Below are positions 27,101 through 63,127 of a stretch of 64,000 nt of DNA, one piece after another. The stretch's first letter is position 1. Each line of letters begins with the position of its first letter. The stretch is from Lytechinus pictus (taxonomy: Eukaryota), in NCBI RefSeq assembly GCF_037042905.1, contig NC_087250.1, positions 22,198,001-22,262,000 on the forward strand. The letters run 5' to 3'. Both the position numbers and the translations under genes were made by a program. Under the pieces are notes generated by a model. The model was not told the DNA's origin and did no database searches. It saw only the letters and a program-made list of their open reading frames with translations.

Positions 27101-30100
27101 TATAGAGAAAATTAATTACTTTTGGTCTGAATATAAACATATTCGTAATAAAATAAACAATATGAATAAAAAATTAAAACGTGAATATTACAGCAATAAA
27201 TTTAAAGATTTCTCAAGTGATCTGAAACAAAAATGGAAAACAATAAAAGAGCTTTTGCCAAAAAGTAAAACCAATGATAAATATAATCTACAATTTGAGG
27301 GTAAAATTATAGAGAATAGTAATGAAATTGGTAATGTTTTCAATCATATATTCAATACTGTGGGAGACAGAATTAGTAATTCAGACACACAAAGGACAGA
27401 AGTAGATGTTGAAGATGTAGATGATCCATGCACTAGAAATATACCCAATGTTGATACGATATTTTGTTTTACAGAAATAAGTGAAGAATTTGTATTGAAA
27501 GAGCTTAAAAATATTGATACGACTAAAGCTTATGGTCTCGATGACCTTCACCCTCGATTAATCAAAGACGCTGCAGATTTTATTGTAGGACCTCTAACCT
27601 ATATATTTAATTTCTCACTTTAAACTGGTTGTGTTCCAAATGATTTTAAATCAGCCAAAATAATACCAATACATAAAAGTGGTGACACGTCACAACCAAT
27701 GAACTACAGACCTGTATCGATTCTGTCGGTAATTGGAAAAATTCTTGAGAAGGGAATTCATAAACAGTTGTATAAATATTTAAACGACCATTCACTGCTT
27801 ACTGATAATCAATCGGGATTTCGACCATTTCATTCCACAAATTCTTGCCTCCTTGACATTACTGAATATATTTTACAAAATATGAGCTCTGGCTACCTAA
27901 CGGGTGCTGTATTTTTAGACCTTCGGAAAGTTTTCGATGTGATTCCGCATGATAAACTATTTAAAAAAATGTTATTGTATGGTATACGAGGTACTGAATA
28001 TAACTGGTTCCAATCATATTTAACAAACAGAATACGACGTGTCTCCATTGATAATGTTTTAAGTGATCCTCTCTTTGTTAAAACAGGAATTCCCCTAGGC
28101 TCGACCATTGGGCCATTGATTTTTAGCTTATATATTAATGATATTTGTGAAATTATTAATATACCACTTAATAAAATATCGTTATATGCAGATGATACCG
28201 TTATTTTTTGTAAATCAAAAAATAAAGAAAATTTGGAAATAACACTTCAATCTCAATTTAATATGATAGTTGAATGGATGAGGGTAAATCAAATGTATAT
28301 TAATGTCGAAAAAACCAAAGTTATGGTATTTGGTACTACTAAAAAGATTAATAAATGCAAAATCAATATTTCATGTAATAACTCATACTTAGAAAAAGTT
28401 GACAACGTAAAATACCTAGGAGTAATTATTGATTCTTCGATGAAATGGTCAAAACATATTGATGCACTTGTAAGCAAACTCTCACGTTTCACTGCATGTA
28501 TACGTCGAATTAAGATTTATCTAACACATAAAACAGTAACTGATTTATATTATTCTATGTTTGTACCACACCTTGATTATTGCAGTATTATTTGAGGAAC
28601 CTCAACGAAGCATAATATTACCAAACTACAACGAGCTCAAAATAGATACGCTAGAATGATTTTGAATGTCGATAGATATACACCAACTAAGGTTCTGTTA
28701 CATACCCTAAATTGGCAATCCGTCCAACAACGTATAAAATTCAATTACTGTATAATGATGTATAAAATAATTAATAACCTTGTACCAATGTATCTAACAA
28801 GACTCGTTTCCTATAGACCAATTTATTACTCTACAAGATATGCTGCAACCAATCCTTTACATGTCCCAACACCTAGAACAGAATATATGAAATCAACTTT
28901 TTCTTATCAAGCAATCGTAATTTTTAATACCCTTCCTTTAAATATACAAACTTGTGGATCATTTATTATTTTTAAGAAGCATTGTAAACAACTAAGTTTA
29001 GAATTTTAGTTCATTTTTAAAGTAAACTGAATACATTTTAACTGAATTCCGATATAATCATATGTGATAGTCATAGTGGGCTTTATAGTGGGGTTGGGGA
29101 TGGGGAGGGATTGTTGTTGTTTTCTTTCTTTAAATGTTTTATTGTACTCTATATTTTTATATATGTTTACCTTTTTAGCATTTTTTTTTCTTTTTACTTG
29201 ATGTTAATAAAAAAATCGAAGATAAGACCGCCATTATGACGTTAACTGGCGTTAACTGATTTTATTGTATTACTCTATTTTTAGTATTTCTATTTTTTAT
29301 CATGCTGGTATAATTTGTTGTTCTCTGGTTTTTATAGTTGCTTTCTCTGTATATTGTATGTAATGTTTTACTCTTTTTACATTGTATGATATTGTAATAT
29401 TTTATTGTTAACATTTTAACAGGGCTCTCTTGTAAAGCAGTTGTATACTGAAGAGACTACCCTGGGTAAATAAAACAAAATAAATAAATAAATAAATAAA
29501 AATTTCTCTTCTTCTCATCTCGTGTTCTGGGGCACTTTTAAGCTTCCGTACTAGTGCCACTAGACCACTATTGTTATACAGATTCACACAGAAAAAGAAA
29601 AAGTGTTGGAAATATTAAGACAACTTCGGAAATATAGACAACCACAAAATTAAACGAAACGATTGAAATCTAGTCTATCGCGAATAGCCATCTTGTATTC
29701 TCGGCACCAACAAGTTGACTTGCCGAGTTCCAACAACTCGTCATCTTGTCTTCTCGTCCTGACAAAGTCGACTTAACGAGATTGAGGATCTTGTGCTGTT
29801 GTCTTCTCATTATCAATAAACTGACTTGACAAGATCGAGGATCTCGTCTTCATGTCTTCTTTCCTCGTCTTCTTGACATCCTGACTCTTTTTTTCGTCTT
29901 CTCATCTCGTCTTCTGGGGGCACTTTTAAGCTTCCGTACTATTGCCACTAGACCACTATTGTTATTAGACGAAATGATGGTTGAACGAGACGGTAATTGG
30001 ACCGCGCATGGCAACAATACCAAATGGTTGTTAGCCGAAATGGGTTTAGAAAAAGTGATTGTAGACCAACTGCATTTAGACAAAATGGAATGTGGACGAA

Positions 30101-48500: not shown

Positions 48501-51500
48501 TAAGGAAAAAAGTTTACCTAATGCATCAAATTAGATTAATTGATTAGATTCATTGCGGTAAATGAAATACAATAAATTCGATGTTCCAGCCAGGGTGACC
48601 AGATTTCACAAAATTAAATACGGGACAATCGACAAAGCACTATGTACCATCGGATCGACCGAGCCAGGCCAGAAAATCAACAAAAAGGCTACACAATGTT
48701 AGACTTGTTAACAAAATATATTAAGAAAGGGGAAGGGAGGGTGAGCGGAAGAAGGAAAAGAGAAAATAATGAGGAAACAAGAAATGAATTGAGACGAAAG
48801 AAAAAAATAAGGAAAAATTAAAAGGAAAAAAGTTTGAATAAAAGAGAGAATGGTTTCCGTCATTACTTGTACTGAATAAAGAAAGAAAGAATTAAAATAA
48901 AGGAACGGAAGATGAATAAATGTTTGAAAGAAAAAACATAAGGAGAGAAAAGAGAAAAGTAAGAAAAATGGAGGAAAATAGACAGAAATAAAAAGAATTC
49001 CTTCATTATTTGAAAGAAACAAAGACAGAATAAACATGAAGGAAGAAAGGGAAAGAGGGAATAAGGGAAAACAGAATTTAAAAAAAAAAAAAAAAAATAA
49101 CATCTACAAAAAAAATAATAATCTACAATAGATTCCGATCACGCTAGTTTAAAAACATAATGGTCTATCACAAGATAACCAAAGTACATGCACATGTAAA
49201 CATAATGCAATGTACGTACCCTAGGGCACCCGAGGATAAGTGCGGGCACGGCCAATATTATATAGCACGCAGGAAACTGCGGGCCCGGGAAAACGCCCTC
49301 GTCTGCTCCCCTTGAATACCCTCGGTTAGACGCAAAAGCCCCCTAGGGTGTTTGCGTGCTCGGGCGTGACGTTTCCTGCGGCCGGCACTGTATATACATG
49401 ATTTTTTCATTGTTGTGCTATGCAATGTCTACTTGTAAATTCAATTTAACACAATCCAAAAATTTGAGAAAAGATGTAGCTAATGTCATCAAAACAAGTA
49501 ATCGCAAACAAAAATATATTAAGAATATGACACATACACGTACTTTCCTGGCGTCTAAGTCGGCTTTATGCTTGATAAGAAGCTTGACAATATCTTTACT
49601 CCCATTTTTCACTGCCAAATGAAGGGGTGTTTCATTCCCGTAATAAGAAGCACCTTTGTTAACGTTAGCTCCTTTCTCCAGTATAAATTCGACTATTTCT
49701 AGATGTTTCCTTGTAAGATAAAATATAAATTGAATTTAATAGAGAGAAGTTTTTTTCAACAGCACCAATCATTAATATACATATAGCATCCTCATGTCAT
49801 AAACTATTCTGCATTTAATTGGGTTGAATCAAGACCTACCACAACTGAAGATTCTTAATCAAATTATGAATGGGTCTAGGTTTATATATTCTGCAAGGGA
49901 ACTGGTTCTTTTTTATTATTATTTTGTCCTCTCCTTATTAGGAACAAAGTTGAAAATTATGTTACCTTTAAGAATTGATCCAATATAACATTATTCCCTA
50001 GATTCAATCTATTAATTTCGGGGAGAGACTAGATTAAAAAAAGGAAAAAAACTCGTGTTGACATTTGAAGCCCATTCTAGCGTTACACGTGCGCGTATAC
50101 AGCACCACATAATATCGACTTCTCCGTAGTCCAACATGACATTCGTTTACCTATTAAAACAAGTTCAATGCCTACAGTTTGGAAAGTGTAGATGAGTTAC
50201 TCTTTTATCTAAGCGTTCTTCCACTTCTTCTTGTGTTTCTGGCTTGTGACTAAGTCTTATTTAGACTTCAGGGGGGCTTGGGAGGGGCGTGTACACAAGC
50301 CCCGTCCCAACCCCCACACATACAAATACATTTTATTGTGGGTTAACATGTTCCTCCCCCTGTTGCACCCACAAATGTAATAACGCCCACAAATGTAATA
50401 ACACTTTACCCACAAATGTAATAAGTTTTGATCGCCCACAAATGTAATAATGACTTTACCCACAAATGTTATATATTTGAAGGGATTTTTGGCGAAAATC
50501 CGTTCGAAACTAAAATCCTATAGTAATACGTTCATATAGCACAAAAGTGCAAAGTCTTTTTTCCAGACCCGGTTAATTCAAAAATTATAATATAAGTCCC
50601 AAGTCTTTTTTCCAGACCTGGTTGTTTCAGAAATTATAACATAAGTCCAAAGTCTTTTTTCCAGACTCGGTTATTTCAAAAATAATATAAGTCCAACTAA
50701 GATACGATAATAATATTTCAGTGGAATATAAACGAGAATCGAGCCTAGTATTTTCTCCAGACCCAGTTAATTAAAACTGGTGGAATTAATGTCTTTGTTG
50801 TTGTTTTAACTTATACGGCATGCATTGTAATTATATGCGCTAATAGTAAACTGAGAATCAAGCATAGTCTTTTCTCCAGACCCGGTTATTTAAAACTAAA
50901 AACTAAAACCCTATTGTAATGCATTCATATAGCACAAAAGTGCAAAGTCTTTTTTCCAGACCTGGTTAATTAAATATTTATAACATAAGTCCAAAGTTTT
51001 TTCCATACCCGGTTGTTTCAAAAATTATAATATAAGTCCAAACTAAGGTTCAATAATGATATTCCGGTGGAATACATATGAGAATCGAGCTTAGTCTTTT
51101 CTCCAGACCGAGTTGATTCAAACTGTGGAATTAATGTCTTTGTTGTTTTAACTTATACGGTGCGTTATGTGAATATATGCGCTAAGAGTAAATTGAGAAT
51201 CAAGCGTAGTCTTTCTCCAGACACGGTTACTTAAACTAAAAACTAAAACCCTGTAGTAATGCGTTCAAAAGTGCAAAGTCTTTTTTCCAGACCTGGTTAA
51301 TTAAATATTTATAACATAAGTCCAAAGCCATTTTTCCAGACCGGGTCGTTTCAAAAATTACAATATAAGTCCAAAGTCTTTTTTCCAGACCCGGTTGTTT
51401 CAAAAATTATAATATAAGTCCAAAGTCTTTTTTCCAGACCCGGTTATTTAAAAAATTACAATGTAAGTCCAAAGTCTTTTTTCCAGACCCGGTTATTCAA

Positions 51501-54500
51501 AAAAATTATAAGTCCAAACTAAGATACCATAATGATATTCCAGTGGAATAAAAATGAAAATCGAGCATAGTCTTTTCTCCAAACCCCGTTATTCAAAAAT
51601 TATAACTAATAATACAACAACAACAGCAAAAACAGTAAGACCCCATAATCTTATTAATGCTGGATAACATGGACATATAGCATAGTCTTTCAGCCAGACC
51701 TAGTTATTTTTTTTTCTCAAAATAATGCTTATAGTAATAATTAAAAAAAAATGAAAATCTCAGACCAAACAACCCTTCAACCTAAGAACCCGTTTTAAAA
51801 AGAGGTTTAGAGTGTTGTTTTTATTTCAGACCTAATCATTACAAAAATTACGAAAAAAAATCTTCTAACGTAAGACCCTATCATATTCTTATTCTTGTGG
51901 AATAACACGAGTAATAAAACGTATTCTTTCCTTCAGACCCGGTTATTTAAAAAAATGAATTAAAAAAACTTCAAATATAAGACCAATCTTCAAAAGTTAC
52001 ACCCTTACTGGGTGTAACTGGGTGTAAAAATATGTATTTACCTCACATCCTTTCTCCAGACTTGGTTATTATTTGAGAAAAAAGAATAATTTTTACAAAT
52101 ATTCCAAAACGAATACCCGATAATCTTGAAGATCGATTGTAGACTTTCCTCCAGACACAGTTATTTCAAGAATAAAAAAGAAATAGAACCCAACCCCCAA
52201 TAACGAATCTAAGAACCAACAATCCTCCAAATTAAGACCATGTAGAAAAGCACATGACTTGTTTAGTGCGTTGTCTTTACTCCAGACCTAGTCATTTAAA
52301 AATAATTCAAACAATCTTAAAAACGTGAGACTTTGTCATATTCTTATTCATGTGGAATAACACGAGTATTATGCTTAGTCTTTCGTCTAGACGAGGTTAT
52401 TTAGATTATAAATAAATATTGAAAAAAATCAAAGCTGAGAACAATCTTCAAAATTAAACCCAGTTAAAATGCTTGGGTTTAGAGTGTTGTCTTTACCCCA
52501 CACCCAGTTCTCTTAAAAATACAAATTAAGTGAGACTTTAATCTTAAAACTTAAACCCCAGCATCTTCCAACTATAAAAACCCTGTGATAACGCATACCA
52601 CGAAAACGACACATTAATCATAGGCGTAAATGTTCATATCTGAATGATACGCACCTTAAAACCCAAGATAACTTTGTTAATATTGTTTGTTTGTTTTTAT
52701 TGTTTCTTATAATTTCCTATTTTGAAATAACTGGGTCTGGAGCAAAGACTACACCATATTTCCATGCTAATCAATGTTTATAAGATTGCAGGGTCTTTGT
52801 TTTGTTGTTGTTGTTGTGTTTTTAACGATTTTTATAACTAGGTCTGGAGGAAAGACTACGCTATATGTACATGTTTTCAAAGAAAACAAACGTTGATAAT
52901 ATAATATATATGATGGCGACAATAGTCAAATTTGACTGGTTGCCAAATAAAAATAAGAACCCCCCCCCCCCCGTTATTCGGCAAAAATAGGATCGTGGGT
53001 CTTTCGTTTTTATTATTATTATTATTCATCATTTTTTATTCGAAAGATATGGGTGTGGATGAAAGACGACGCTATATTTCCATGTTATTTTACATTAAAA
53101 AGAGAGTGGGGATCTTTGTTACTTTTTTACTCTTTAAGAAATGATTTGTAATTTTGAAATAAGTGGCTCTGGAGGGAAGACTACGCTATATTTCCATATT
53201 CAGCATCAATAAGTTTGTGGGGCCTTTGTTTTATTATAATTATATATTTTTTTTATGATTTGTTATTTTAAAATAAATGGGTCTTGAAGAAAGACTAAGC
53301 TATATTTTCAAGTTATTCAACATCAATGAGATGGGTTTTTTGCATAGAGATATATACTTATAACGCTAGAGGGCGTACTTCGTCAAATCGCTGTTATTAC
53401 GCGGAGACCGGTCGCTATTACTCGATAGGTCTTCGCAGCCTGCCATGTGCGTACTGTACCTATGGGCCATGTACTGTGATAGCACAGAAATGGAACACAA
53501 TGATGACATATGAGCGCGAAAGCAAATGGAAAAGTTAAAAATAGTATTGAATGTACAGAATTACAGTTAAATTAACAAAAAATCTAACGAAACTGAGAAC
53601 AAAAATGCCCATATAGGAATATTAATATAGCGCATAATATACAGGCCAATGATACATCCCAAATTGTTTTTGCTTTTGTTATAACATTTCGATACACTAA
53701 TATGACTGTTATTTTCTAACGATTTGGAAGGGATGAATGTTAAAAAAAACATGTAGGCCTGGGCATATTGTTCTAGGGAGTCCTGATTAACAAATTTAAC
53801 ATGGTGTTCAAGTTGACCTCAGAAATTTATATAGTCAAAAAAGTTAACTTGGCCTACAGGCCATATCACAGTGTCTAATGCATATGAGACACTGGTGGAT
53901 CTAAGGGGGAGGGGGCAGAGCCGGCTCGTCCCCCCCCCCCCAATTTTGAGAGGCACAGTTAAAATTTGTAATGTTAAATGCCGTTAAAACACTAGTGTAT
54001 CCCCCTTTGAATTATCCACCCGGCTCCCCCTTTTGGAAAATCCTGGATGCGCGCCTGATCTAAGACACAATGTATTGATAAAAAACACTATTGCATTTTT
54101 TCAAGTAGTTTCATAATAACCATGATGCTGATAATTATTTCTTCATTTTTTAGAATAATTGTTATAATTTCTTTTCCATATATACATGTATAGATCTACA
54201 CATAGAAATCATATGGGCATAAATCCTTTTCCCCATGGATTTAAATGTCGATATAACCGTCATCACAATAACTCGTGAGTCATAAAATGAATTTTTATTG
54301 ATACTATTTGAAAATGATTTACACATTGGTCTAGTTAATTGATGAATCTATAAGTTTATGGTTTATATTTCCAATGTTGGCAACCATCCGATCATATACT
54401 TTCTTACTTGCAAATCAATGTAGAAAAGTTTGTTGACAGCAAAATTTGCATATCGAATGCGCGCATGCAGCCATACAATTTTGCAATGTATACAGGAGGC

Positions 54501-57500
54501 CTCATATTGAGAGAATTATGTTTACAGTATTGCCTTGTAAACATGATAAACAAATTACGATGCGTGTTTAACACAACATAAAAGATTTTCACTTTGATTT
54601 ACTGGAAAATCTAGACTTGATTCACCCCGGCTGAAATACCATGCTGATCGGCAAACCGGCTGAGATATTGTGTTTGTGTTCCTATGATTGAACCAATATT
54701 ATGTGAACAATCAAGGATCGAAGAAGAGGACGAAGGAGGAGGAGAAGGAGAGGAGAATAAACAGAGCGGGAGGGGTACATCATATTTTTTTGTATTACAT
54801 ACGAAGTACATTATTACTACAACTGAGTGTATAAAACCAATTGATAACAATATCCTGAAAGAGATACATTAACACTTTATAAACTTATCATAAAAACTTT
54901 TGTAAAATTGTGAGTACGAAAAACAAACATATTAAACAATAGGCCTATTGTAAAACTGACAAATCCTTGGAATAAGATATTACAAATTGTCGGCTGTTGA
55001 GTGATCATCCTAATTTAACCTCAAATATAATGCCTGTCTTGAAATTGTGTTAATCAAAATGTGACTGTGTTGCTTGAATACTAACTTAATCATGTTAATG
55101 ACAAAAATTTCCCAACACTGGCACCGGCCTCTCGACTCTGTGTATAAACAGATCTATTAACACGCGTTTTGCAGATTCTTTTTTTTTTCTTTTTTTTTTG
55201 TCATTTTAAAAGTATATACTGAATTTGATTTTCTCATTTTTTTAATGATACGATTTCCATGGATGAACAAATGTCAGTTTATTACGGGGCCGCGCACGGA
55301 ATGATTTTGAAAGTGGTGGTCGGGGGGTGCATAAAATCACAATCAAATTTTATTATGTACTGTTCATTTTCACTTCAGGGAGGGGTCCGGTCACGCCCCC
55401 TGTACTTGAATACTTTTATTTTGATTGTGAATTTGCTTGGATGCGTATGTCACTTTAACACACACCCCCTGAAAATGAGCGAATAAAATAAACCGATTCT
55501 AACTCAAAGAGAAGGGTATTAAAAGCAAAAATTTTGGAACAATGAAAATTCATTCTAGATATTTTAAATCAATATCTCATTTTTGGTGCCGTATAGGCCT
55601 GCAGATTCTATCATATTCCTATGAGAAAAAAATTAACAAAACCACTGAAGACCCAATATAGTTTTACCATTGATGGTGTAACGGGAGGCTCACAAAGAAA
55701 AATTAATGAGATGTCCTGAAATACTACTTGCTAATAAAGCTAAAATAGCGTATATATAAGATAAAAACACTAACTTATACAAATTATTGTACCTTAAAAA
55801 ACTATTACTAGTATATATTTAATACAAATAAAGGCAAGTTACATAATAGTAGGCCATCATGCTCAATTTTATAGGCTTACTGTTTTCTTTTTTTACGAGA
55901 TAAGAATGTTCATCTGTAAAATTTTTATAGGGCATATCCGATTTATATTACTTTGTATTATGTTTGAATGGAAATGACATTCAAAAAAATGAATTGAAGT
56001 GAGGTGGAGTGAAATCAACTGAATTGAAATTACAAAATTATATCCGACATAAATTGGTCGATCATAATGAGAACCATGATGGAATCATGTAGATGAAGGA
56101 ATTGCCAAAGGACGATGTCAGTTAAAGCCAAATGTAGGGAAATCCATAGATGATGGGCTGATTAAGTGTTTTTTAATTAAATGTCAAAATTTACTATAAA
56201 TATTTTATTTTATGTATTTATTTATTTATTTATTCATGTGTTATCAATATGTTATGATAGGCCTATAAATGGACAGGTAATCGTAGATGCAATTATTTGA
56301 GAATTTCATCCCGAGAATTCAGGTAAAAATACAAATCAATAGCTGATCCCCATGTAATCACACTAATAGTGTATTGAGATGCAATTTGTCATTCATATTT
56401 TCAATTGTATATGAGGTTTGATTCTTTTCTTCAAGATAAAAGCCGGCGACAGCATCCTTTTTCACAGCGTTACACGTACGAGCTATGTGTACATCCGGGT
56501 ACTTTTGCAAATCTAGACCTATCGAGCAATGGCCGACCACGCTCCGCGCAATCACAGACGTTAAGTACGCGCGCCTATGGCGACTCCGCACTCTAGCGTA
56601 CTTAGTATACATCTCTATGTTTTTTTGTTAATATTGTTCTTCATTATTTTCTATTTTGAAATAACCGGGGCTGGAACAAAGACTACACCATATTTTGATG
56701 CTAACTGGGCGTTGTGGCGTGCGCCTGTAATCCAAGCTATGTGGGGAAGTTACAAATTGATGCAAAGGTTCGAGGTTCGAATCCTGGTCACGTCTTTCGG
56801 ATGGTGACGTTAAAGGTCGGTCCCAGACGTAAATAATAATATCTTCAATTCATTTATTTAATACTTTCATTAAAAACAAACATATATAAAGACATAATAA
56901 CATAGGCAATATATAATAGAAGTAATTATGACACTAATAGTAAGCAAAACGATACAAAGAAAAACAAGAAGGAAAAATTACTTTACTCGGATAGAAATGA
57001 AAGTATAAGGAGTGGCAGAAAGGCTGAGCCTTATATAAAACCCAAACTCCAAACATTATTATAAACCAAAGTATATATATATATATATATAACTGATTTA
57101 AACCAAATATAAAATCTAAAAGGTACGTGCATACATGCAATCATTAACACCTATTTACAAAAAAAAATTGACAGACACACACAAACACACCCACACATAC
57201 ACCACACACACATCTTATTGAGTAAAATCATTGCACCTTTGAATAGTTTTGAAGTAAATAAAATTTCATTTTCCTTTTGAAACTATTTAATGATGGGCTT
57301 AATTTTATATCTAATGGTATGCTATTCCAGATTTTGGGACCTCTGAATAAAATATTATTTTGAGAAACTGATGTTCTTACTAAGGGAATGTGACAATTTT
57401 CTGCATACCTGGTTCGATATCCATGAATATCTTTATTCAACTAAAAATATTGTAAAAGAGAACTTGTTAAGATTTTTTTGTAACATAAATACATAAAAAT

Positions 57501-60500
57501 TGCACTATGATAAATATATAAATCAGGCATTCTCAGAGTTTTCAGGCTTTGAAAGAGAGGCATGGTATGGGCAAGATATTGGCTATGTTATGTGTGACAA
57601 TTCTTATTATTTTCTTCTGCAGCAATATAAGTATATTTGTATTCTGCATACTGGAACATGCCCATATGATAATACAATAATATAAATGTGGTAAAATTAA
57701 AGTGTTATATAGAGTCATTAAGGTTTCTTTAGATAGAAATTTCAAACTATAAAATACACCAGCACGTTTAGATATTTTGTTGCAGATGACACCAGTGTGC
57801 TCCTTCCATGTAAGTTTATTGTCAATTAAGACACCTAGAAAAGTTGTTTGTGTGACCTGATCAATAAAGGAGTCTTTTAATTTAATTCTTATTTGAGTAG
57901 TATCAATTTGATTCTTTGTAAATACCATGAAATGTGTTTTCTTTATATTAAGTGAAAGTTTATTATCTTCTAACCATTTGACAAATTTATTGAATTCAGA
58001 ATGAAATGTATTTTGAAGAACTGTAATGTCTTGGTGAGACATGAACACACTAGTGTCATCTGCAAATAATATAAATTCTAATGTTTTGGAAATGTTACAG
58101 ATATCATTTAGATATAAAAGAAAAAATAATGGCCCTAAAATTGAACCTTGGGGCACTCCACATCTTACAATCTCTTTCTGAGATTCATATTCATCTATTA
58201 CTACGTATTGCTTTCGATTATCTGAATAACTTTTAAACCAATCCATTACAACACCTCGAAAACCATATTTTTCCATTTTTTTCAACAAAAGTATGTGATC
58301 AAGAGAATCAAATGCCTTACTAAGGTCTAAAAATAATCCAATCATGATTTCTTTATTATCAAAGGCATTTGATACTTTATGAATAAATTCAGAAATGGCA
58401 GAAGATGTGGAGTGCCCTGCTCGAAAACCAAATTGTTTGGGAGTAATAATATTGCACATGTCCAGAAAATTATATACACGCGAGTACACACATTTTTCTA
58501 AAAAATTTAAAAAAAAAGGGAGGACAGAATATAGGCCTATAGTTTGATACTTCATCTTTTGATCCATTTTTAAAAATTGGAATGACTTTCGCAATTTTAA
58601 GTTTATCTGGAACCGTGCCAGTACTCAAAGACAAATTAATTATATCACATAGTGGATAACATAATATATGAATAACAGTCTTCACCAATGTACTGCAAAC
58701 ACCATCAAAACCAGGGCTCTTGCCACTTTTAAACTTTGAAACAATATCAATAACTTCTTTAGATGTACATGGAGTAAAATACAAACTTGAATTATTTTTC
58801 ATTACATTTACATATTGCATAAAATCACCATTGTGTTTAAACGAGGAAGTCAATGTTTGGCCTATATTTACAAAAAATGAATTAAAAGTATTGCATATTG
58901 CACCTTTCCCTTTAACTGTGACATCATTGCAAACAACAGAGTGTGGTAGTACCTTATTTTTTACACCCCTACCCAGCACTGTGTTGATAATTTTCCATGT
59001 GTTTTTCATGTCACCAGCAGCATTTTCAAATTTGTTCTTAAAATATTCTTTCTTTGCCTTCCTAATTTCATTTGATATTTTATTTTTTAAATGCTTGTAT
59101 TTTCCATAGTTCTCTGAAGTATTAAATTTTAAATTATTTATTACAGAGTTTGCGTAATGACTTGTTAAACCAAGGCTTGTTTTTTAATTTTCTTTTTACT
59201 ATATGTCCAACAGGAAAGCATGAGTTGTATATATCTAAGAACTTCTGCAAAACAATTATTATAAGCTACATTTGGATCTTGACTTTTAACATGCCAGGAG
59301 ACACTGCTAATTTTCTGCACAAAAAGTTGTGTATTTTCTAAATTAGCAATACGTTTATTGGAACTATTCTAATTTTTAAGAAGCAATTCTAAATTTGATA
59401 TGGAAAACACTGGAAAATGATCACTGATATCACAAAGGATAACACCAGAAAATATTTCTTGCAAGTCATTTGTAAAAATGTTGTCTAATAAGGATGCTGA
59501 ATGAGTGGTTACCCGAGTTGGAGTATAAATCAATGGATATATATTATGAGACATGCATACATCAAGAAATTCGTTTACTCGTTGGCAAGATGTGACTTCT
59601 ATTAAATTTAGATTGAAATCTCCAATTAAATATAATAATTAATTCTCTCTATTTACAACATCTAAAATCTTCTCAAAAGATTTCATAAAGCATTGCACTG
59701 ATTGATTTGGTGGACGGTATATTACTCCAACTACAATGTTTCTCTTAAAATTTATAATCTCTACAAAAATAGATTCAAAGTATTCATTATTTATATCTAA
59801 ATCATTTCTACATTTAAAATCTAAATCATTTCTAATGTAAAATGCAACTCCACCACCTCTTTTTTCATCTCGTCCATTTGCTAAAAAAATAATAGTTCTC
59901 AATATTATAAAAAGAATTTACCTCTTTGAGCCAGGTTTCTGTTATACCTAACAATGAGAATTGCACATCCAAAGTAGCTATGAAAGAAACAAAACTATCA
60001 AAATTCTTTCTAATGCTCCTGCAATTACAATGTAAGACAGAAAAAATGTAGTTACTATTTTTATTCAACTTTTTACTGTATTCGTTGAATTCATCAGAGG
60101 TAAAAAAAAAGACTGATCGGGCCCAAAATTACACATATGTTCATTTTCATTAATTTCAGGTGATAGAAATTCATGAATAGTTTGCAAATCCAAAGAATTT
60201 AAAGATTGCAAATAACGTTGTCTGATAGACATTGTTCATAGCACACACACAAACACGCATATAGTCACAGACACACCTATAACAAACAAGCTATAAAAAA
60301 ATAAATGTTGATATGGTATTGAAGTAGTGTTTTAATAAAAGCCACTAGGAGCCTAAAAGAAATAAACAAATAACAAATGGCTGCATAAAGTTCATCAAGT
60401 CCTGGATCGGTTCAGACTTTATTTAGGAGAACAAAAGTACAAGTTCATAGCCGACTTAAGTCCTCTTTGTGCCTGACAAGGTGCTTCATTGTTGATCCAT

Positions 60501-63127
60501 CCGAGGCCGCAACACTGACATAAATACGTCCACCTGATGACCATGCTGCTAAAGCCTTAGAACAAGTCTGAACATCCCGCAGCAACTTGAAATTTGATGC
60601 AGTTAGGTCTTCGAACACATGCAGATATGTGTGATCCTTTCAGCTTCCTTCTGTTGGTGATCAGTTGTTGACAACACCTGTAAGAGCAGAACTTAACGAT
60701 AATACCCATGCTCTTCGTTTTGTCGGTTGGGGCTTTTCCTACCCGATGACTACGATCGATGTCACTGATGTCGAAAGTAATTCCCATCTGCCGTGCAACA
60801 TCAAGGACGATTTCATCAGTATTTTCTGCTGACTTCTCCTTTAATACTCCGAAAATTCTTATACAATTACGGCGAGAATACTGCTCCAATGAATTCACAT
60901 TTCGTTTCAGGGTATTTACTTCATCATTTCGGGTGTGTAGCTCCTTCCTTAGAGATCCAAGTTGCTGCTCCTTCTTATCATCATCAGTTTGAACATTAAA
61001 AAAATCACTCTCCAGCTTCTCAAATCTGGTTTCCAGGCAGTCAAGCTTAGACTCTAGATCGTGTAACCTGGCATCTCGTACTTTAGTTGTTGATACAAAT
61101 TCGGTGATGCGCGATTCTTGTTGAGCAATCCCGATCAGAATTGTGTTTCTTCTCTACTCTAAAATAAAACTGATTGATACACGTCTGACAAAAACTCAAA
61201 TACACACACACACACACACACGCTATTCAATGTTGAACAGATTGCGGGGTCTGTTTTTGGTTGTTGTTTTGTTTTTTAATGATTTTTTTTTATGACTGGG
61301 TCTGGAGGAAAGATTGTGCTATATCTACATTTTGTTCAACATTAATAAGATCGTAGGATCTTTTTTCTAATTATTATTATCTATTAGTTTTAACTTGCTA
61401 TTTGAAAGTTTTGGGTCTGGAGGAAAGACTATGCTAAACTTCTATATTATTCAAAATTAAGAAGAATCAATTTTGGGATCCTTATTTGTAAAATTGTTTA
61501 AATGTTTTATGTAACTGGGTCTGGAGAAAAAAGACTGTGATTTTCCACTATATGAACGCATTACTATAGGGTTTTATTTTAGAACAGATTCGCCAAAAAT
61601 CCCTTCAAATTTATAACATTTGTGGGCAAAGTCATTATTACATTTGTGGGCGATCAAAAATTATTACATTTGTGGGTAAAGTGCATTATTACATTTGTGG
61701 GTGAAATTATTACATTTGTGGGTAAAGGGGTTTTAGTTTTTAGTTTTAAGTAACCGGGTCTGGAGAAAAGACTACGCTAGATTCTCAATTTACTCTTAGC
61801 GCATATATTCGCAATATGCGCTGTATAAGTTAAAACAACAACATACATTTATTCCACCAGTTTTAATTAACTGGGTCTGGAGAAAAGACTAAGCTCAATT
61901 CTTAATTTTATTCCACTGGAATATCATTATTGTATCTTAACTTGGACTTATATCATATTTTTTTGAATAACCGGGTCTGGAAAAAAGACTTTGGACTTAT
62001 ATCATAATTTTTTAAACAACCGGGTCTGGAAAAAAAATTAACCTATATTATAACTTTAAATCAACTGGGTCTGGAAAAAAGACTTTGAACTTATATTATA
62101 ATTATTACATTTGGCGCAAATATTCACTACTGAATGACACGCGCCGTATAAGCTCAAACAACAGCAACAACAATTTTTTAATCTACCAGGTCTGGAAAAA
62201 AGACTTTGGACTTATAATAATTCTTTGATTAACCGGGTCTGGGAAAAAAACTTTGCACATTTGTGCTATATGAACACATTATTATATGGTTTTAGTTTTT
62301 AGTTACCGGGTCTGGAGAAAAGACTATGCTTGATTCTCAATTAACTCTTAGCGCATATAGTCGCAATACGCGCCGTTTAAGTGAAAACAACAACAAAGAC
62401 ATACATTTCACCAATTTTAATAAACTGGGTCTGGAGAAAAGACTAAGCTGGATTTTCATTTTTATTCCACTGGAATATCACTATTGTATCTTAGTTTGGA
62501 CTTATATTATAATTTTTGAAATGACTGGGTCTGGAAAAAAGACTTTGGACTTATATAATAATTATTTTAACAACCGGGTCTGGTAACATATTACTATAGG
62601 ATGTTAGTTTCGAACGAGTTCGCCAAAAATCCCTTCAAATTTATTACATTTGTGGGTAAAGTCATTATTACATTTGTGGGCGATCAAAAATTATTACATT
62701 TGTGGGTAAAGTGGATTATTACATTTGTGGGTAAAGTGGATTATTACATTTGTGGGTAAAGTGTTATTACATTTGTGGGCGTTGTCACATTTGTGGGTAA
62801 AGTTTTATTACATTTGTGGGCGTTATTACATTTGTGGGTGTAACACCCCCCCCCCCCCCCCGCCTCCCTGAAAAAAAAAAATGAAATAAAACCCCTTGAC
62901 GTGTAGTTCGTTTGGATATGGCTTGTATGTTGGAAAATTTGACTTACTTTCCCACAGCTCTGTAAAGGGGAGTTTTCCCACTGATAGATGTTGTCTCTAA
63001 GTTTGCACCGTATTCACAAAGTACTTTCACGCAGTCCATTTTTCCATTCTCGATGGCTTCTTGAAGCGGTGTCCATTTATTGTGGTTTGCGGCTTCTAAA
63101 CGCTGTTTCAATTGTTCCTCGTTCTGA
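2877..63127 (-). CDS. Multi-exon gene (5'-incomplete): ankyrin repeats (>=16) - ZU5 - UPA-like - death domain protein, 19 exons in window, ~1016 aa
   Basis: Manual splicing gives 19 exons, all GT-AG, with every junction phase-compatible and an open frame to TAA at 2877-2879. Ankyrin consensus (G-TPLH-A---G---IV-LL--GA-VN) runs in register across junctions. ZU5 motifs IGPEGG...IPPGAL...F.KPV.I.LPHCA and a C-terminal death-domain-like helical segment are present. Confidence 0.9.
4190..5758 (+). mobile_element. 5'-truncated, degenerate CR1/L2-group LINE (RT C-terminus + 3' UTR + GAAAT-type tail)
   Basis: GVPQGSLLGPL, FADD-like, NWIRANRLS, LQKKGLRII and YPTRQSDEFHLP remnants; 3' hairpin aggaggctg...cagcctcct; tail aataaatgaaatgagatg. 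Confidence 0.85.
5968..5995 (-). CDS. Micro-exon (phase 1-2): PRPSKSRDS(E)
   Basis: cttttacag acceptor, ga|gtaagt donor, 28 nt; bridges the phase-1 and phase-2 neighbours. Confidence 0.75.
6626..7182. mobile_element. Non-autonomous TIR element (Kolobok-like AGG...CT ends, degenerate TTAA flanks)
   Basis: TIR ccgggctgaaaa / ttttcagcccgg; related internal sequence in the fragment at 16290-16640. Confidence 0.6.
7608..7740 (-). CDS. UPA-like exon (phase 0-1): KLTEREIYTQPIITRCFYSKTIESFSELNVKLFHGEDKTILCKT
   Basis: ttttacag acceptor, c|gtaagt donor, 133 nt. Confidence 0.8.
8830..9180. repeat. Palindromic array of short GACGAAATGG/GGTCTA-type units; related arrays at ~9705-9990, ~10305-10500 and ~29965-30300
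   Basis: Recurrent tagacgaaatgg / ccatttcgtct motifs, inverted about a centre. Confidence 0.6.
11272..11388 (-). CDS. UPA-like exon (phase 0-0): DRNTDGFQDLSESTTFYVRWQKCSISITVFDGKLEEMTG
   Basis: tttcag acceptor, ggg|gtgagt donor, 117 nt, open frame. Confidence 0.8.
12488..12715. repeat. (TAG/AGT)n microsatellite
   Basis: Directly visible. Confidence 0.95.
13231..14014 (+). mobile_element. Non-autonomous AcademH-type DNA transposon with a RecQ-like helicase 5' fragment
   Basis: TAG...CTA termini, ~150-bp TIRs, perfect 9-bp TSD tattgacac (13222-13230 / 14015-14023); internal ORF with FKELQLRAI...DTFVSLPTGYGKSAIYQ. Confidence 0.88.
13512..13760 (+). pseudogene. RecQ-like SF2 helicase N-terminal fragment (motif 0 / Walker A PTGYGKS) inside the AcademH element
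   Basis: ORF-track translation; truncated after motif I, starts at TTG. Confidence 0.8.
14070..14470. repeat. Two-copy ~200-bp tandem duplication
   Basis: ctcgttttgcagc...ggccaaactcagatttccaaac occurs twice in direct orientation. Confidence 0.85.
14672..14910 (-). CDS. ZU5 C-terminus / UPA-like exon (phase 1-0): DGEMTTIDLISDNVQDIPAVVVREKVLHLHIAEFCKWFAVF...LKITLRDESCPA
   Basis: tttcag acceptor, gcg|gtaaga donor, 239 nt; EFCKWF sits at the position of the ZU5-terminal HFSW motif. Confidence 0.85.
15285..15605 (-). CDS. ZU5-domain exon (phase 1-1): ...SGRKVIGPEGGQIDLNIYNTHMMIPPGALDDDQEISIKL...SFGVELKPGGLKFKKPVQIKLPHCARITD...
   Basis: ZU5 signature motifs; attag acceptor (alternative in-frame ctctag acceptor 6 nt downstream), g|gtaagt donor. 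Confidence 0.9.
16015..16049 (-). CDS. Micro-exon (phase 2-1): IPEEERSDALA
   Basis: aaatag acceptor, g|gtaatt donor, 35 nt; restores phase between the ankyrin and ZU5 exons. Confidence 0.7.
16290..16640 (+). mobile_element. One end of a Kolobok-like non-autonomous element (TTAA|AGG terminus)
   Basis: ttaa|aggacaagtcc start; shares ctgaaaatttcatcaaaat and tgatgacatca blocks with 6626-7182. Confidence 0.5.
17187..17344 (-). CDS. Last ankyrin exon (phase 0-2): VSIVHPEYQTLTTNEKLIVYLLDRGANYEIFDSSGYTPIHYACNKIWQLLVL(R)
   Basis: ccttttcag acceptor, ag|gtatca donor, 158 nt. Confidence 0.88.
17380..22001 (-). mobile_element. Internally deleted / decayed DIRS1-type tyrosine-recombinase retrotransposon
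   Basis: Inverted terminal repeats ~17415-17563 and ~21840-21988; ICR at 17621-17718 complementary to both outer extensions; YR C-terminal remnant; no TSD, as expected for DIRS. Confidence 0.9.
17790..17990 (-). pseudogene. DIRS tyrosine-recombinase C-terminal remnant
   Basis: RPRAHDTK...ALFNGIVVDDILRTAFWRSPNSFTSLY, then after a frameshift LKDFTSHEALFASSVLKAA; matches the YR H-x-x-R...W...Y region, degenerate. Confidence 0.75.
22661..22873 (-). CDS. Ankyrin exon (phase 0-0): DGPLVNKEDAQGKTPLHLAVEGGFSPVIEALVEFGANINIQTNDGKTCLHLAVTVWGSSDKTVQDTTGFEQ
   Basis: atacag acceptor, cag|gtgagg donor, 213 nt, canonical GKTPLHLA. Confidence 0.92.
23204..24989. mobile_element. Non-autonomous TIR element with CA(T/G)(A/G)GGCGGATCC ends and internal gctcgcgcttcgcg repeats
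   Basis: cataggcggatcc ... ggatccgcccctg; TSD not recognisable. Confidence 0.55.
25633..29501 (+). mobile_element. 5'-truncated L2/Crack-type LINE: ORF1 C-terminus + ORF2 (PHD-APE-RT), (AAAT)n tail
   Basis: ORF1 end IFIHEDLT...YTTDGRV; ORF2 APE motifs HLNVHSL, SETWL, GDMN, SDH; RT motifs NYRPVS, QSGFR, YADD; stops at 27621-27623 and 28593-28595; 3' cagggc...cctgggtaaataaa(ataa)n. Confidence 0.95.
25833..29009 (+). pseudogene. LINE ORF2 (PHD finger - endonuclease - reverse transcriptase), 2 stops + 1 frameshift
   Basis: ORFs 25950..27623, 27699..28595 and 28656..29009 share one frame, separated by single stops; extra T in the T-run near 25880. Confidence 0.92.
30693..30747 (-). CDS. Small linker exon (phase 2-0): EIYDHCFDAGRNRPNFLK
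   Basis: cttttgcag acceptor, aaa|gtattt donor, 55 nt; bridges the phase-2 and phase-0 neighbours. Confidence 0.65.
31418..31633 (-). CDS. Ankyrin exon (phase 2-2): GDSKILEHVLNLDEMSESTSSKNNKGHIPLHSAARKGNLDCVSLLMPLGLGQGDGEQVHARLQLIALAKTL(K)
   Basis: tttcccaacag acceptor, aa|gtagta donor, 216 nt. An alternative phase-0 donor caa|gtacac would end the exon at 31462. Confidence 0.78.
31863..33692. mobile_element. Kolobok-like non-autonomous TIR element with TTAA TSD, host to a nested insertion
   Basis: ttaa|aggagaatgaaac ... gtttcattctcct|ttaa; arms complementary over ~190 bp. Confidence 0.85.
32242..33483. mobile_element. Nested TIR element CCCACTGGGCA...TGCCCAGTGGG with TA flanks
   Basis: ta|cccactgggca ... 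tgcccagtggg|ta; internal ttacc/ggtaa repeats inverted between arms. Confidence 0.8.
34145..34335 (-). mobile_element. 3'-end fragment of a LINE of the same family as 4190-5758
   Basis: Reverse complement of the aggaggctg...cagc(c/t)tcctcc hairpin and tggaaataaa...gaaatgaa tail. Confidence 0.65.
35054..35193 (-). CDS. Ankyrin exon (phase 0-2): SNHNSTALLLAAEHGHHSCVEKLLENGADHCKRDNDGDTLVHAAAL(G)
   Basis: ttttccaccag acceptor; in-frame donor gg|gttcgt (140 nt); a second donor gtaagg lies 4 nt further on. Confidence 0.85.
35423..38776. mobile_element. 3.35-kb foldback element, TAG...CTA termini (Academ-like non-autonomous), arms made of ~175-bp tandem units
   Basis: tagacaggttaatata ... tatattaacccgtcta; about 8 units (ggacaagttacaaggacag...ccaagatggcttcc) on the left arm and about 6-7 inverted units on the right. 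Confidence 0.8.
37266..37519. mobile_element. CACT...AGTG palindromic MITE nested in the foldback element
   Basis: cactgtaaaaaatattgg ... cccaatatattttagagtg; internal gtgtccaaccaa / ttggttggacac. Confidence 0.7.
38861..39017 (-). CDS. Ankyrin exon (phase 2-0): NRPGIIECLLENSVDIDTTNKNSRTALLLASSKGYFECVDFLLQRGADVNKQ
   Basis: T-rich tract + tacag acceptor, gtatga donor, 157 nt; within ORF 38855..39148. Confidence 0.9.
39351..39406 (+). ncRNA. Minimal type I hammerhead ribozyme motif (Penelope-like-element pLTR remnant)
   Basis: Stem I acggc/gccgt; core CTGATGA (39360-39366); stem II tgctt/aagca; GAAA (39383-39386); stem III act/agt; cleavage triplet GTA ending 39395; flanked by (TA)n tracts. 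Confidence 0.65.
40169..40308 (-). CDS. Ankyrin exon (phase 0-2): SDEAWTPMHMSIKAGHSEVTSILIAYGSNVHSEIKTGDSPIHIAAE(W)
   Basis: tcgcag acceptor, gtaaga donor, 140 nt. Confidence 0.9.
40604..40760 (-). CDS. Ankyrin exon (phase 2-0): NNVDMVKYLLDLSANVNKGNKTGITSLHIAASKGFSEIVGILLESAADVNAQ
   Basis: atttag acceptor, cag|gtaaaa donor, 157 nt. Confidence 0.9.
41225..41410 (-). CDS. Ankyrin exon (phase 2-2): DAGQHLENRSLINSTTKTLLTPLHSAILGGQLECVKILCKAGADIEAQSNSGKTPLQRATE(K)
   Basis: tcaaag acceptor, gtgagt donor, 186 nt. Confidence 0.87.
41538..42582. mobile_element. Non-autonomous TIR element CAGT...ACTG (Tc1/mariner-like)
   Basis: cagtcagtcggcaag vs cttgcagacagactg|ta; imperfect TIR; left TA degenerate. 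Confidence 0.5.
42697..42800 (-). CDS. Ankyrin exon (phase 0-2): AINDYNVFHVAAETGQDECLQTLIDSVEITQSRD
   Basis: ctaaag acceptor, gtatgt donor, 104 nt, ankyrin motif. Confidence 0.82.
43100..43616. mobile_element. Palindromic MITE built of ttcgtaattccgaagg units, 8-bp TSD (hAT-like)
   Basis: TSD gaaagttg at 43092-43099 and 43617-43624; arms are reverse complements. Confidence 0.85.
43856..44266 (-). repeat. About one 391-bp unit of a tRNA-like tandem repeat (3' half at 44214-44266, 5' half at 43856-43894)
   Basis: A-box TGGTCTAGTGG, B-box GGTTCGATTCCC, acceptor stem GTCTCTG/CAGAGAC, T6 run; the two halves overlap in gcgttcaaag. Confidence 0.6.
44265..44445. repeat. 15-bp minisatellite (ttttacctctgccat)n, about 12 copies
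   Basis: Directly visible; source of the spurious MAEVK / LPLPF / YLCHF ORFs. Confidence 0.95.
45346..49390. mobile_element. 4-kb non-autonomous TIR element with TA TSD
   Basis: ta|cagtgccggccgcgggaaacgtcac ... gtgacgtttcctgcggccggcactg|ta; subterminal cctaggg repeats at both ends; no transposase ORF. Confidence 0.85.
49544..49709 (-). CDS. Ankyrin exon (phase 2-0): KHLEIVEFILEKGANVNKGASYYGNETPLHLAVKNGSKDIVKLLIKHKADLDARK
   Basis: ttacaag acceptor, gtacgt donor, 166 nt; completes the repeat begun in the previous exon. Confidence 0.88.
53343..56619. mobile_element. Nested 3.3-kb non-autonomous element, CATAGAG...CTCTATG termini (P-element-like), 8-bp TSD
   Basis: TIR catagagatatatact..aacgctagagggcg / cgcactctagcgt..agtatacatctctatg; flanks gttttttg / tttttttg (7 of 8 match). 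Confidence 0.7.
56704..56844 (+). mobile_element. 5' part of a SINE with a 7SL/Alu-domain head, tRNA-type B-box and Deu/Meta-like core
   Basis: ctgggcgttgtggcgtgcgcctgtaatccaagcta resembles the 7SL 5' end; ggttcgaatcc B-box; gtctttcggatggtgacgttaaa core; left TSD gcta at 56700-56703. Confidence 0.75.
56845..61169 (-). mobile_element. Near-full-length, decayed CR1/L2-group LINE (ORF1 + APE-RT ORF2) inserted into the SINE
   Basis: ORF1 LEQYSRRNCIRIFGV...DIDRSHRVG...IIVKF; ORF2 HCNCRSI, ITETWL, GVIYRPP, SDHFPV, NYRPI, QFGFR, DLSKAFD, GVPQGSILGP, FADD; many frameshifts; tail aaataaatgaattga. Confidence 0.93.
61170..61221 (+). mobile_element. 3' part of the split SINE with (CA)n tail
   Basis: ctgattgatacacgtctgacaaaaactcaaata(ca)n; acgtctg pairs with cagacgt of the 5' part; right TSD gcta at 61222-61225; the host repeat unit resumes afterwards. 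Confidence 0.7.
62948..63127 (-). CDS. Ankyrin exon, first in window (phase 2-2): QNEEQLKQRLEAANHNKWTPLQEAIENGKMDCVKVLCEYGANLETTSISGKTPLYRAVG(K)
   Basis: ttcatag acceptor, gtaagt donor, 180 nt, ankyrin motifs. Confidence 0.88.

Follow-up and report, generated by a model that had tools for sequence, protein, structure and literature searches.

Short interspersed elements (SINEs) with a head derived from 7SL, the RNA in the signal recognition particle (SRP), are famous through Alu, yet independent origins of such elements are very rare. Three have been described, all of them in vertebrates, namely in supraprimates, shrew moles, and hagfish (PMC7245038; bioRxiv 10.1101/2024.08.25.609555), and the hagfish SINE1 was presented as the first evident SINE1 outside Euarchontoglires (Kojima 2020, PMC7245038). 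As these sources describe them, all three retain both ends of the Alu domain and carry nearly the same central deletion, which has been read as a functional requirement. Here, we describe a SINE headed by the 5' part of 7SL from the echinoderm Lytechinus pictus. The stretch analyzed, hereafter the window, comprises 64,000 nt of NC_087250.1 (positions 22,198,001-22,262,000 of the forward strand, assembly GCF_037042905.1), with coordinates counted from its start, and it holds a copy of the element that is split by a long interspersed element (LINE).

A 46-nt 5' Alu domain is reported to be necessary for Alu retrotransposition, to bind SRP9/14, and to be able to promote retrotransposition (Moldovan, Yin and Moran 2024, PMC11760393), and the 5' Alu domain is likewise reported to be sufficient for the association with SRP9/14 in human cells (HeLa; PMC11760393). 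From sea urchins, the papers concerned name SINE2-1_SP, SINE2-2_SP (Meta), SINE2-3_SP (Deu), SP-4, SP-5, and SINE2-6_SP (CORE) (PMC4824008, PMC4758252). In the full-text literature, 7SL-derived SINEs were found only for supraprimates, shrew moles, and hagfish and for no invertebrate, an uncurated or unpublished database entry being possible. A preliminary description of the same DNA had suggested a possibly new origin of a 7SL-derived SINE in an echinoderm-like lineage, a suggestion that agrees with the full-text literature searches, in which no echinoderm or other invertebrate case was found. The echinoderm family is most likely an independent and undescribed variant of the 7SL-headed SINE.

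7SL origin of the head

As far as the alignments reach, the head of the element is the first 47-48 nt of the host 7SL RNA, which correspond to helices 2-4 and so to the Alu domain's 5' domain in full. In the window, positions 56704-56750 match model positions 1-44 of Rfam Metazoa_SRP with 29.6 bits (E 3.6e-6), an intact genomic copy matches the same model over element positions 1-47 (E 2.9e-6), and about 30 of 36 letters agree by eye with the Rfam consensus line; the second-ranked Rfam match of the head is mir-1268, which is itself derived from Alu. The genome that was searched (812 Mb in 368 contigs) contains seven full-length 7SL genes, scoring 272-283 bits in a Metazoa_SRP search, and the first 31 nt of the SINE are identical at 31/31 positions to the gene on contig C12 and one base off the other six (30/31 against the C10 gene L031). 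At the differing base, and again at the base paired with it on the 3' strand of helix 2, the SINE has the letter of C12; it thus carries the same compensatory pair as the C12 gene. Aligned with host 7SL, the first 48 nt span 49-50 columns, 40-41 of them with identical letters, and the element and 7SL begin at the identical base. The model match and the 31/31 identity to a host gene bear out the origin of the head from the 7SL 5' Alu domain that the preliminary description had put forward.

Three subfamilies can be told apart by the helix-4 loop and the linker that follows the head: A predominates, B (15/65 copies) lacks 2 nt of the helix-4 loop, and C is older, with a linker that is 8 nt shorter. 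All of them retain positions 1-31, and the pairings of helices 2 and 4, read by eye, are retained in A, B, and C alike. The formal definition of SINEs given by SINEBase (PMC3531059) includes at least 60% identity to tRNA, 5S rRNA, or 7SL over at least 60 nt. The first 60 nt of the element have 44/61 and 47/63 identical columns with two host 7SL genes (72-75%), a homology that is convincing only to about position 48, the last 12 nt being at chance level. A 7SL-derived head, the mark of SINE1 elements, is present, and we hold the identity of the element as a 7SL-headed SINE to be very probable.

The head is of the SINE1 kind, but the element is built differently. The architecture of the SINE1 elements described so far, in which 5' and 3' regions of 7SL are joined by a central deletion, was not found: positions 49-172 of the SINE show no significant similarity to 7SL, and their best stringent local alignment with the 7SL remainder is at the null level, being equaled in 172 and 192 of 300 shuffles. 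No part beyond the head is demonstrably 7SL. In the genome, 7SL positions 48-298 had only eight matches, the seven genes and one 67-nt fragment, so amplification was confined to the 5' domain, and 7SL retrocopies do not make up a family of their own. The lone 67-nt fragment comes from the S domain of 7SL and lies at C17:24566767-24566833, with 94% identity.

Copy number, dispersal, and marks of retroposition

A 141-nt query from the 5' part of the element had 1,715 first-look candidates in the genome, and scoring 40 of them gave 51 matches, that is, 50 with an identity of 91-100% and a single decayed tandem member with 77%. A 79-nt query from the body had 1,041 first-look candidates, and 40/40 of those scored were 100% identical; the search with the SRP model left 6,077 rough candidates. 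With 1,715 and 1,041 first-look candidates, the element is not the single-copy sequence that the preliminary description had named as the outcome that would speak against its proposal. The scored matches are spread over at least 17 contigs with unrelated flanks, only a minority of them lying in tandem arrays, which is the interspersed, non-tandem distribution that SINEBase asks of a SINE. Moreover, intact copies are 172 bp long plus (AC)n, and among 75 distinct copies in the examined loci 65 are full length and nine start past position 3.

In the loci examined, the body was not found with another head. When 30 loci were seeded by the body alone, 22 started at consensus position 1-3 and the remaining eight were plain 5' truncations (start at 7-44) with unrelated DNA upstream; an alternative head on the same body, as a parent family would show, was found in none of these 30 loci, and all 40 scored body matches belong to the SINE family. 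Likewise, the junction between 7SL and body is constant in all 65 full-length copies, apart from indels specific to subfamilies.

Marks of retroposition are present in the form of target-site duplications, 5' truncation, and a variable tail. The duplications range from none recognizable to 14 bp and are clear (7-14 bp) in six copies (L008, L010, L002, L038, L057, and L025). In 52 non-tandem copies, the AC run past the end of the consensus measures from about 0 to 34 nt, with a median of 10, and the base that precedes the element is A in 32/52, the base before it being C in 19/52. The element is apparently a young, dispersed, and retroposed SINE family with about a thousand or more copies and some secondary amplification at the DNA level.

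Two kinds of unusual junction were noticed besides. At the 5' junctions of L024, L082, L072, and L062, the first 8-12 nt of the head are duplicated, as template jumps ending reverse transcription predict. Head-to-tail arrays, in which the AC tail runs directly into the next head, occur at C18:3952125-3953102 (L017/L023), with 6-7 units, and there are smaller head-to-tail arrays, dimers or trimers, at C2:17634207-17634687, C7:25357260-25357590, and C4:9657048-9657380.

Tail hairpin and the host repeat R

LINEs that copy only RNAs bearing their own 3' end usually recognize a module made of a hairpin and a short tandem repeat. The tail of the SINE has this build: the last 56 nt of intact copies fold into a two-step hairpin (7+6 bp; z -4.03, with 1/200 shuffles folding equally well), which is followed by an A-rich stretch and then by the variable (AC)n. 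A related tail lies inside a composite host repeat, R, and in an alignment of 11 R copies with three SINE tails 90.1% of the cells at the hairpin are paired, versus 17.6-50% with the partners slid, and 0/500 shuffles reach the observed pairing. Two pairs are changed on both sides between the SINE tail and the R tail in a compensatory manner; as there are only two such events, the support from covariation is modest.

Repeat R is at least 3 kb long, with inverted arms and 49-bp and 25-bp subrepeats, and has about 628 first-look candidates; it occupies approximately 50300-52850 and 56620-56703 / 61222-62850 in the window and is also present in L071-L082. The tail-like segment lies at 52621-52672 in the window copy of R and at the equivalent place in L073-L082 and L043, and it is possibly what remains of the tail of a related retroposon. 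In at least five R copies, a SINE is inserted at nearly one position (to within about 15 nt) with differing junctions, which suggests an insertion hot spot. R was also considered as a LINE in its own right and was rejected as such, being a composite with inverted arms and with no reverse-transcriptase frame in the window copy, in which only the internal tail-like hairpin is related.

Concerning the LINE that would supply the tail, a genome search for RVT_1 left 12,239 candidates, of which the best 150 were scored, and the 3' ends of four LINEs, compared with the tail, showed no match to it. A genome search with the tail alone gave no matches, its words probably having been skipped as too common, and is no evidence either way.

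Linker, B box, and core

The linker contains a B-box-type motif at consensus positions 71-81 (56774-56784 in the window), preceded by an overlapping second copy and called against the B-box consensus. The preliminary description had placed a B-box motif at this position, as is found, and had gone on to regard the element as a 7SL/tRNA chimera. This latter claim is not supported, since ARAGORN found no tRNA in the window, no tRNA model appeared among the Rfam matches to the intact copy up to E 10, and the B-box-type motif stands alone. A recognizable tRNA-derived unit, as a 7SL/tRNA fusion would have, was thus not found in the element. The description had also named a better fit of the head to a tRNA than to 7SL as a result that would overturn its view; SRP is the best Rfam match, and there is no tRNA match.

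Downstream of the linker, the core hairpin (56787-56808) lies within a 73-nt middle segment that folds with z -1.42, 14/200 shuffles folding equally well. An 11-letter motif from the core was absent from one supplement of the MetaSINE paper (PMC4824008), which is a weak test of the resemblance to Deu and Meta domains that the preliminary description had seen.

Two observations concern the surroundings of the 7SL genes themselves. In six of the seven (L031, L032, L033, L034, L035, and L036; contigs C1 and C10), a conserved element follows directly after the T run, at 30-70 nt. It resembles the 3' half of a tRNA, with a perfect T-arm containing a B box and then a second T run, has three genome matches as DNA, and could be a candidate downstream control element of echinoderm 7SL genes for RNA polymerase III (Pol III). 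In addition, a SINE of the older subfamily lies about 33 nt upstream of each of three tandem 7SL genes on C10, in the same orientation (L031:1290-1467, L035:1294-1467, and L036:1315-1473). These copies are a single insertion that was later duplicated with the gene unit, and they sit at the edge of a conserved upstream region.

The window copy and its surroundings

The copy in the window (56704-56844 plus 61172-61221) measures 191 bp once joined (Table 1). Sliced together by script, its halves cover all 172 positions of the family consensus with four mismatches and one inserted base; aligned by BLAST with an intact genomic copy, they correspond to its positions 1-141 and 140-190, with a 2-base overlap. 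Once joined, the flanks match an unbroken unit of the host repeat at approximately 52686-52847, where the four letters of the target occur once. The sequence statements of the preliminary description were all located, at most 2 bases from the coordinates it gave. In particular, it had rebuilt the split SINE with a 4-bp target duplication inside a host repeat, which is correct, the consensus and empty-site alignments being in agreement; it had seen the split as the work of a LINE of about 4.3 kb, and an RVT_1-bearing insert does lie there on the minus strand; and it had sought the 3' end of the SINE beyond this LINE, where it was found at 61170/61172-61221, ending in an AC run.

Table 1. Parts of the split SINE copy and its target site in the window.
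Feature	Position	Strand	Basis
Left target-site duplication, 4 bp	56700-56703	+	Letters recur at 61222-61225; empty site carries a single copy
SINE head, 7SL positions 1 to ~47: helices 2, 3, 4, U-turn, A-box region	56704-56751	+	Rfam Metazoa_SRP, alignment with host 7SL
Linker, two overlapping B-box-type motifs (second at 56774-56784)	56752-56786	+	Sequence reading; no tRNA model match
Core: hairpin (56787-56808) and spacer	56787-56823	+	Predicted fold
Tail hairpin, 5' half, cut by LINE	56824-56844	+	Consensus positions 121-141
Degenerate LINE inside SINE, 3' end toward 56845	56845-61169	-	RVT_1, Exo_endo_phos_2, ORF1-like frame
2-bp duplication or microhomology at LINE insertion, repeats 56843-56844	61170-61171	+	Pieces overlap at consensus 140-141
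Tail hairpin 3' half and A-rich tail end	61172-61201	+	96% identity to consensus positions 140-190
(AC)n microsatellite end of SINE	61202-61221	+	Sequence reading
Right target-site duplication, 4 bp	61222-61225	+	Same letters as 56700-56703

The insert is a decayed non-LTR retrotransposon (LINE) that landed in the SINE later. Its 4.3 kb (56845-61169, minus strand) contain an RVT_1 domain at 57542-58594 (E 1.7e-27), a weak endonuclease match upstream of it (Exo_endo_phos_2, E 5.4e-4, under the Pfam cut-off) at 59372-59638, and, at 60560-61153, an ORF1-type coiled-coil frame of 198 aa, with the reading frames split into several pieces. A second LINE lies on the plus strand at 25866-28595, with a 585-aa frame that carries a PHD finger and an endonuclease domain, one stop, and a 323-aa RVT_1 frame (E 4.2e-41).

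As for the host, the genome contains a two-exon bindin gene at C13:14344741-14346105 (Pfam Bindin, 236.7 and 53.1 bits). The presence of this gene assigns the host to the echinoderms, and among them most likely to the sea urchins, bindin being not known from outside this group; it also supports the echinoderm-like character that the preliminary description had attributed to the DNA. A search for mitochondrial COX1 in the genome had no match.

Proposed mechanism and alternative explanations

The reading favored here, to which we would assign a probability of about 0.82, is that of a young, high-copy echinoderm SINE composed of a 7SL head, a B-box linker, a hairpin core, a LINE-type 3' module, and an (AC)n end. 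Pol III would start at 7SL +1 and make use of the A-box region of 7SL together with a B box some 50-60 nt downstream. The element contains no run of four T, and its transcript would extend into the flanking DNA. Among public sequencing runs, all sampled words of the element occur in DNA runs and in some runs presumed to be RNA from the same organism, and a share of 0.31 (under 5 words) occurs in runs labeled as sea urchin, echinoderm, or marine, seawater, and estuary metagenomes, none of which counts as evidence of expression, habitat, or distribution. A tail-specific LINE with its own 3' hairpin and microsatellite would then reverse-transcribe the SINE RNA into new sites. In addition, as has been suggested for Alu, SRP9/14 may attach to the 5' Alu-type domain that was kept and so bring the RNA to ribosomes; such binding, if real, would explain the retention of exactly this structural module. 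The breakpoint coincides exactly with the point where the Alu fold's 5' domain ends, and an SRP14 exon was found in the genome (30.6 bits). By analogy with Alu, the head could act beyond its function as a promoter through SRP9/14, with odds that are even at best. The chimera itself would most likely have been born when a template switch or a recombination event joined 7SL to an older element that already had the tail.

Several results weigh against this reading. The 29.6 bits of the head lie below the Metazoa_SRP gathering score of 70, as is expected when the threshold was set for a whole RNA of 299 positions and the head is a piece of 47 nt; the demonstrable homology to 7SL spans 47-48 nt only, and selection on the fold of the head can be read from three subfamilies only. 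The head is predicted to fold no more stably than shuffled sequences (z 0.28), and since the real 7SL 5' domain is also at shuffle level (z 0.10), this measure says nothing on the head. Many copies have a very short or no recognizable target duplication; the A and C that precede the element match its AC tail, a microhomology by which many junctions are blurred. The existence of head-to-tail arrays means that part of the copy number arose at the DNA level. Moreover, no source of the B-box module was found among the tRNA models, 7SL, and the element downstream of the 7SL genes. A partner LINE with the SINE tail was not found among the 3' ends of four young LINEs (L083-L086), the two window LINEs, neither of which resembles the SINE tail at its 3' end, and approximately 330 kb of examined sequence. 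Finally, SRP9 was not detected in the exon-by-exon genome search, which for a small multi-exon gene does not show its absence.

The same body of evidence bears on four other explanations. That the element is an ordinary tRNA-derived SINE2, resembling 7SL by chance or by convergence in the A box, is barely worth entertaining: the motif at consensus 71-81 is of the tRNA kind, and most invertebrate SINEs are described as tRNA-derived (PMC7245038), whereas the head is identical at 31/31 positions to a host 7SL gene and colinear with it through helices 2-4, SRP is the best structured Rfam match, and neither Rfam (to E 10) nor ARAGORN reports a tRNA. Scarcely more credible is a set of many independent chimeric retrocopies, produced by template switches onto 7SL in the manner of U6-LINE chimeras, with no self-propagating family behind them. 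Template switching is known to make such chimeras (PMC7245038), and the small 5' duplications in several copies suggest template jumps; however, separate events of this type sit badly with a 7SL/body junction that is constant through 65 full-length copies, with diagnostic subfamilies, with a 7SL remainder left unamplified at eight matches, and with scored body matches that are identical in 40/40 cases. A repeat spread mainly at the DNA level, as tandem arrays or as a passenger of a larger composite repeat, would account for the arrays of 6-7 units on C18, the dimers or trimers on C2, C4, and C7, and the several copies near the same spot in repeat R. It is nevertheless very improbable, as the copies occupy at least 17 contigs with unrelated flanks, bear target duplications, are in some cases cut short at the 5' end, end in AC tails of varying length, and have junctions in R that vary by copy and, thus, point to separate insertions.

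The remaining alternative, that more than the head comes from 7SL, is unlikely, though it keeps somewhat more credit than the other three. In this case, the element would be an internally deleted 7SL gene whose B box was taken from 7SL or from the B-box element downstream of the 7SL genes. SINE positions 53-84 align locally with the 80-nt downstream segments of three 7SL genes at a level reached by 2, 6, and 6 of 300 shuffles, but masking the B box leaves flanks whose similarity is at the level of shuffles (8/8 tests with p > 0.2). Similarly, a permissive local alignment places the core best against 7SL positions ~141-190, at a marginal level reached by 24-75 of 500 shuffles, and a colinear anchored alignment of SINE 49-110 with 7SL 48-112 attains z up to 2.4; this value, however, varies between 0.7 and 2.4 according to the gene and the window chosen, higher scores are obtained with non-colinear 7SL windows, and the stringent alignment is null. 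We retain the young SINE family with a head limited to the 7SL 5' domain as the preferred reading.

Implications

That 7SL-headed SINEs arose here independently for a fourth time, and for the first time outside vertebrates, when a natural minimal Alu domain acquired the hairpin tail belonging to a tail-specific LINE, is a tentative proposal that may well claim too much. If the head recruits SRP9/14, hitchhiking on ribosomes would be a general strategy that also works with LINEs other than L1, and the 3' half of the Alu domain, which is kept in every described SINE1, would in that case be dispensable in nature. A family that carries the 5' domain only, and that has apparently risen to some thousand near-identical copies or more, provides a natural test of which part of 7SL aids the spread of SINEs. 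Moreover, sea urchin embryos offer a tractable non-mammalian system for the study of SRP9/14 binding, of retroposition by hairpin-specific LINEs, and of the birth of such chimeras. There is also a warning for annotation, namely that Alu-like matches in invertebrate genomes are not necessarily contamination.

Comparison with known systems

Known sea urchin SINEs share with the window SINE the host group and a modular build of head, body, and tail. As described, SINE2-1_SP and SINE2-2_SP differ by their tRNA-derived promoters and the others carry names of the tRNA type (SINE2 or CORE-SINE). Alu, B1 and their Euarchontoglires relatives, and Urop from shrew moles resemble the window SINE in a 7SL head that runs from the 5' end and keeps the A-box region, the U-turn, and helices 3 and 4. 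According to their descriptions, these elements consist of 7SL sequence only, their 5' and 3' ends are joined by a near-identical central deletion, and they end in a poly(A) tail used by L1, whereas the window SINE has no 3' part of 7SL, a body that is not 7SL, and a tail formed by a hairpin and (AC)n. A composite build, in which a 7SL-derived part is combined with part of another SINE, is described for the Tu-type elements of tree shrews and GarnAlu of the bushbaby (PMC7245038). However, these are mammalian elements made, by that account, of complete 7SL-derived and tRNA-derived units, and the window SINE contains no demonstrable tRNA unit.

The minimal 5' Alu domain of 46 nt (PMC11760393) corresponds to the head of the window SINE in size and in structural module. 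It differs in being, as reported, an engineered human construct driven by L1, whereas the window SINE is a natural echinoderm element. The hagfish element SINE1-1_EBu (Eptatretus burgeri, PMC7245038) is described as having, like the window SINE, a head from the host 7SL, modules of other origin, and a LINE-type tail with a short tandem repeat; both elements are chimeric, young, and present in thousands of copies, and both are presumably moved by a LINE other than L1 that recognizes the tail. In the account given of it, SINE1-1_EBu differs in containing both the 5' and 3' regions of 7SL, that is, a full Alu domain with the central deletion, in having an identified RTE partner, and in its vertebrate host. 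The window SINE, unlike SINE1-1_EBu, carries the 5' domain only (~47 nt) and belongs to an echinoderm.

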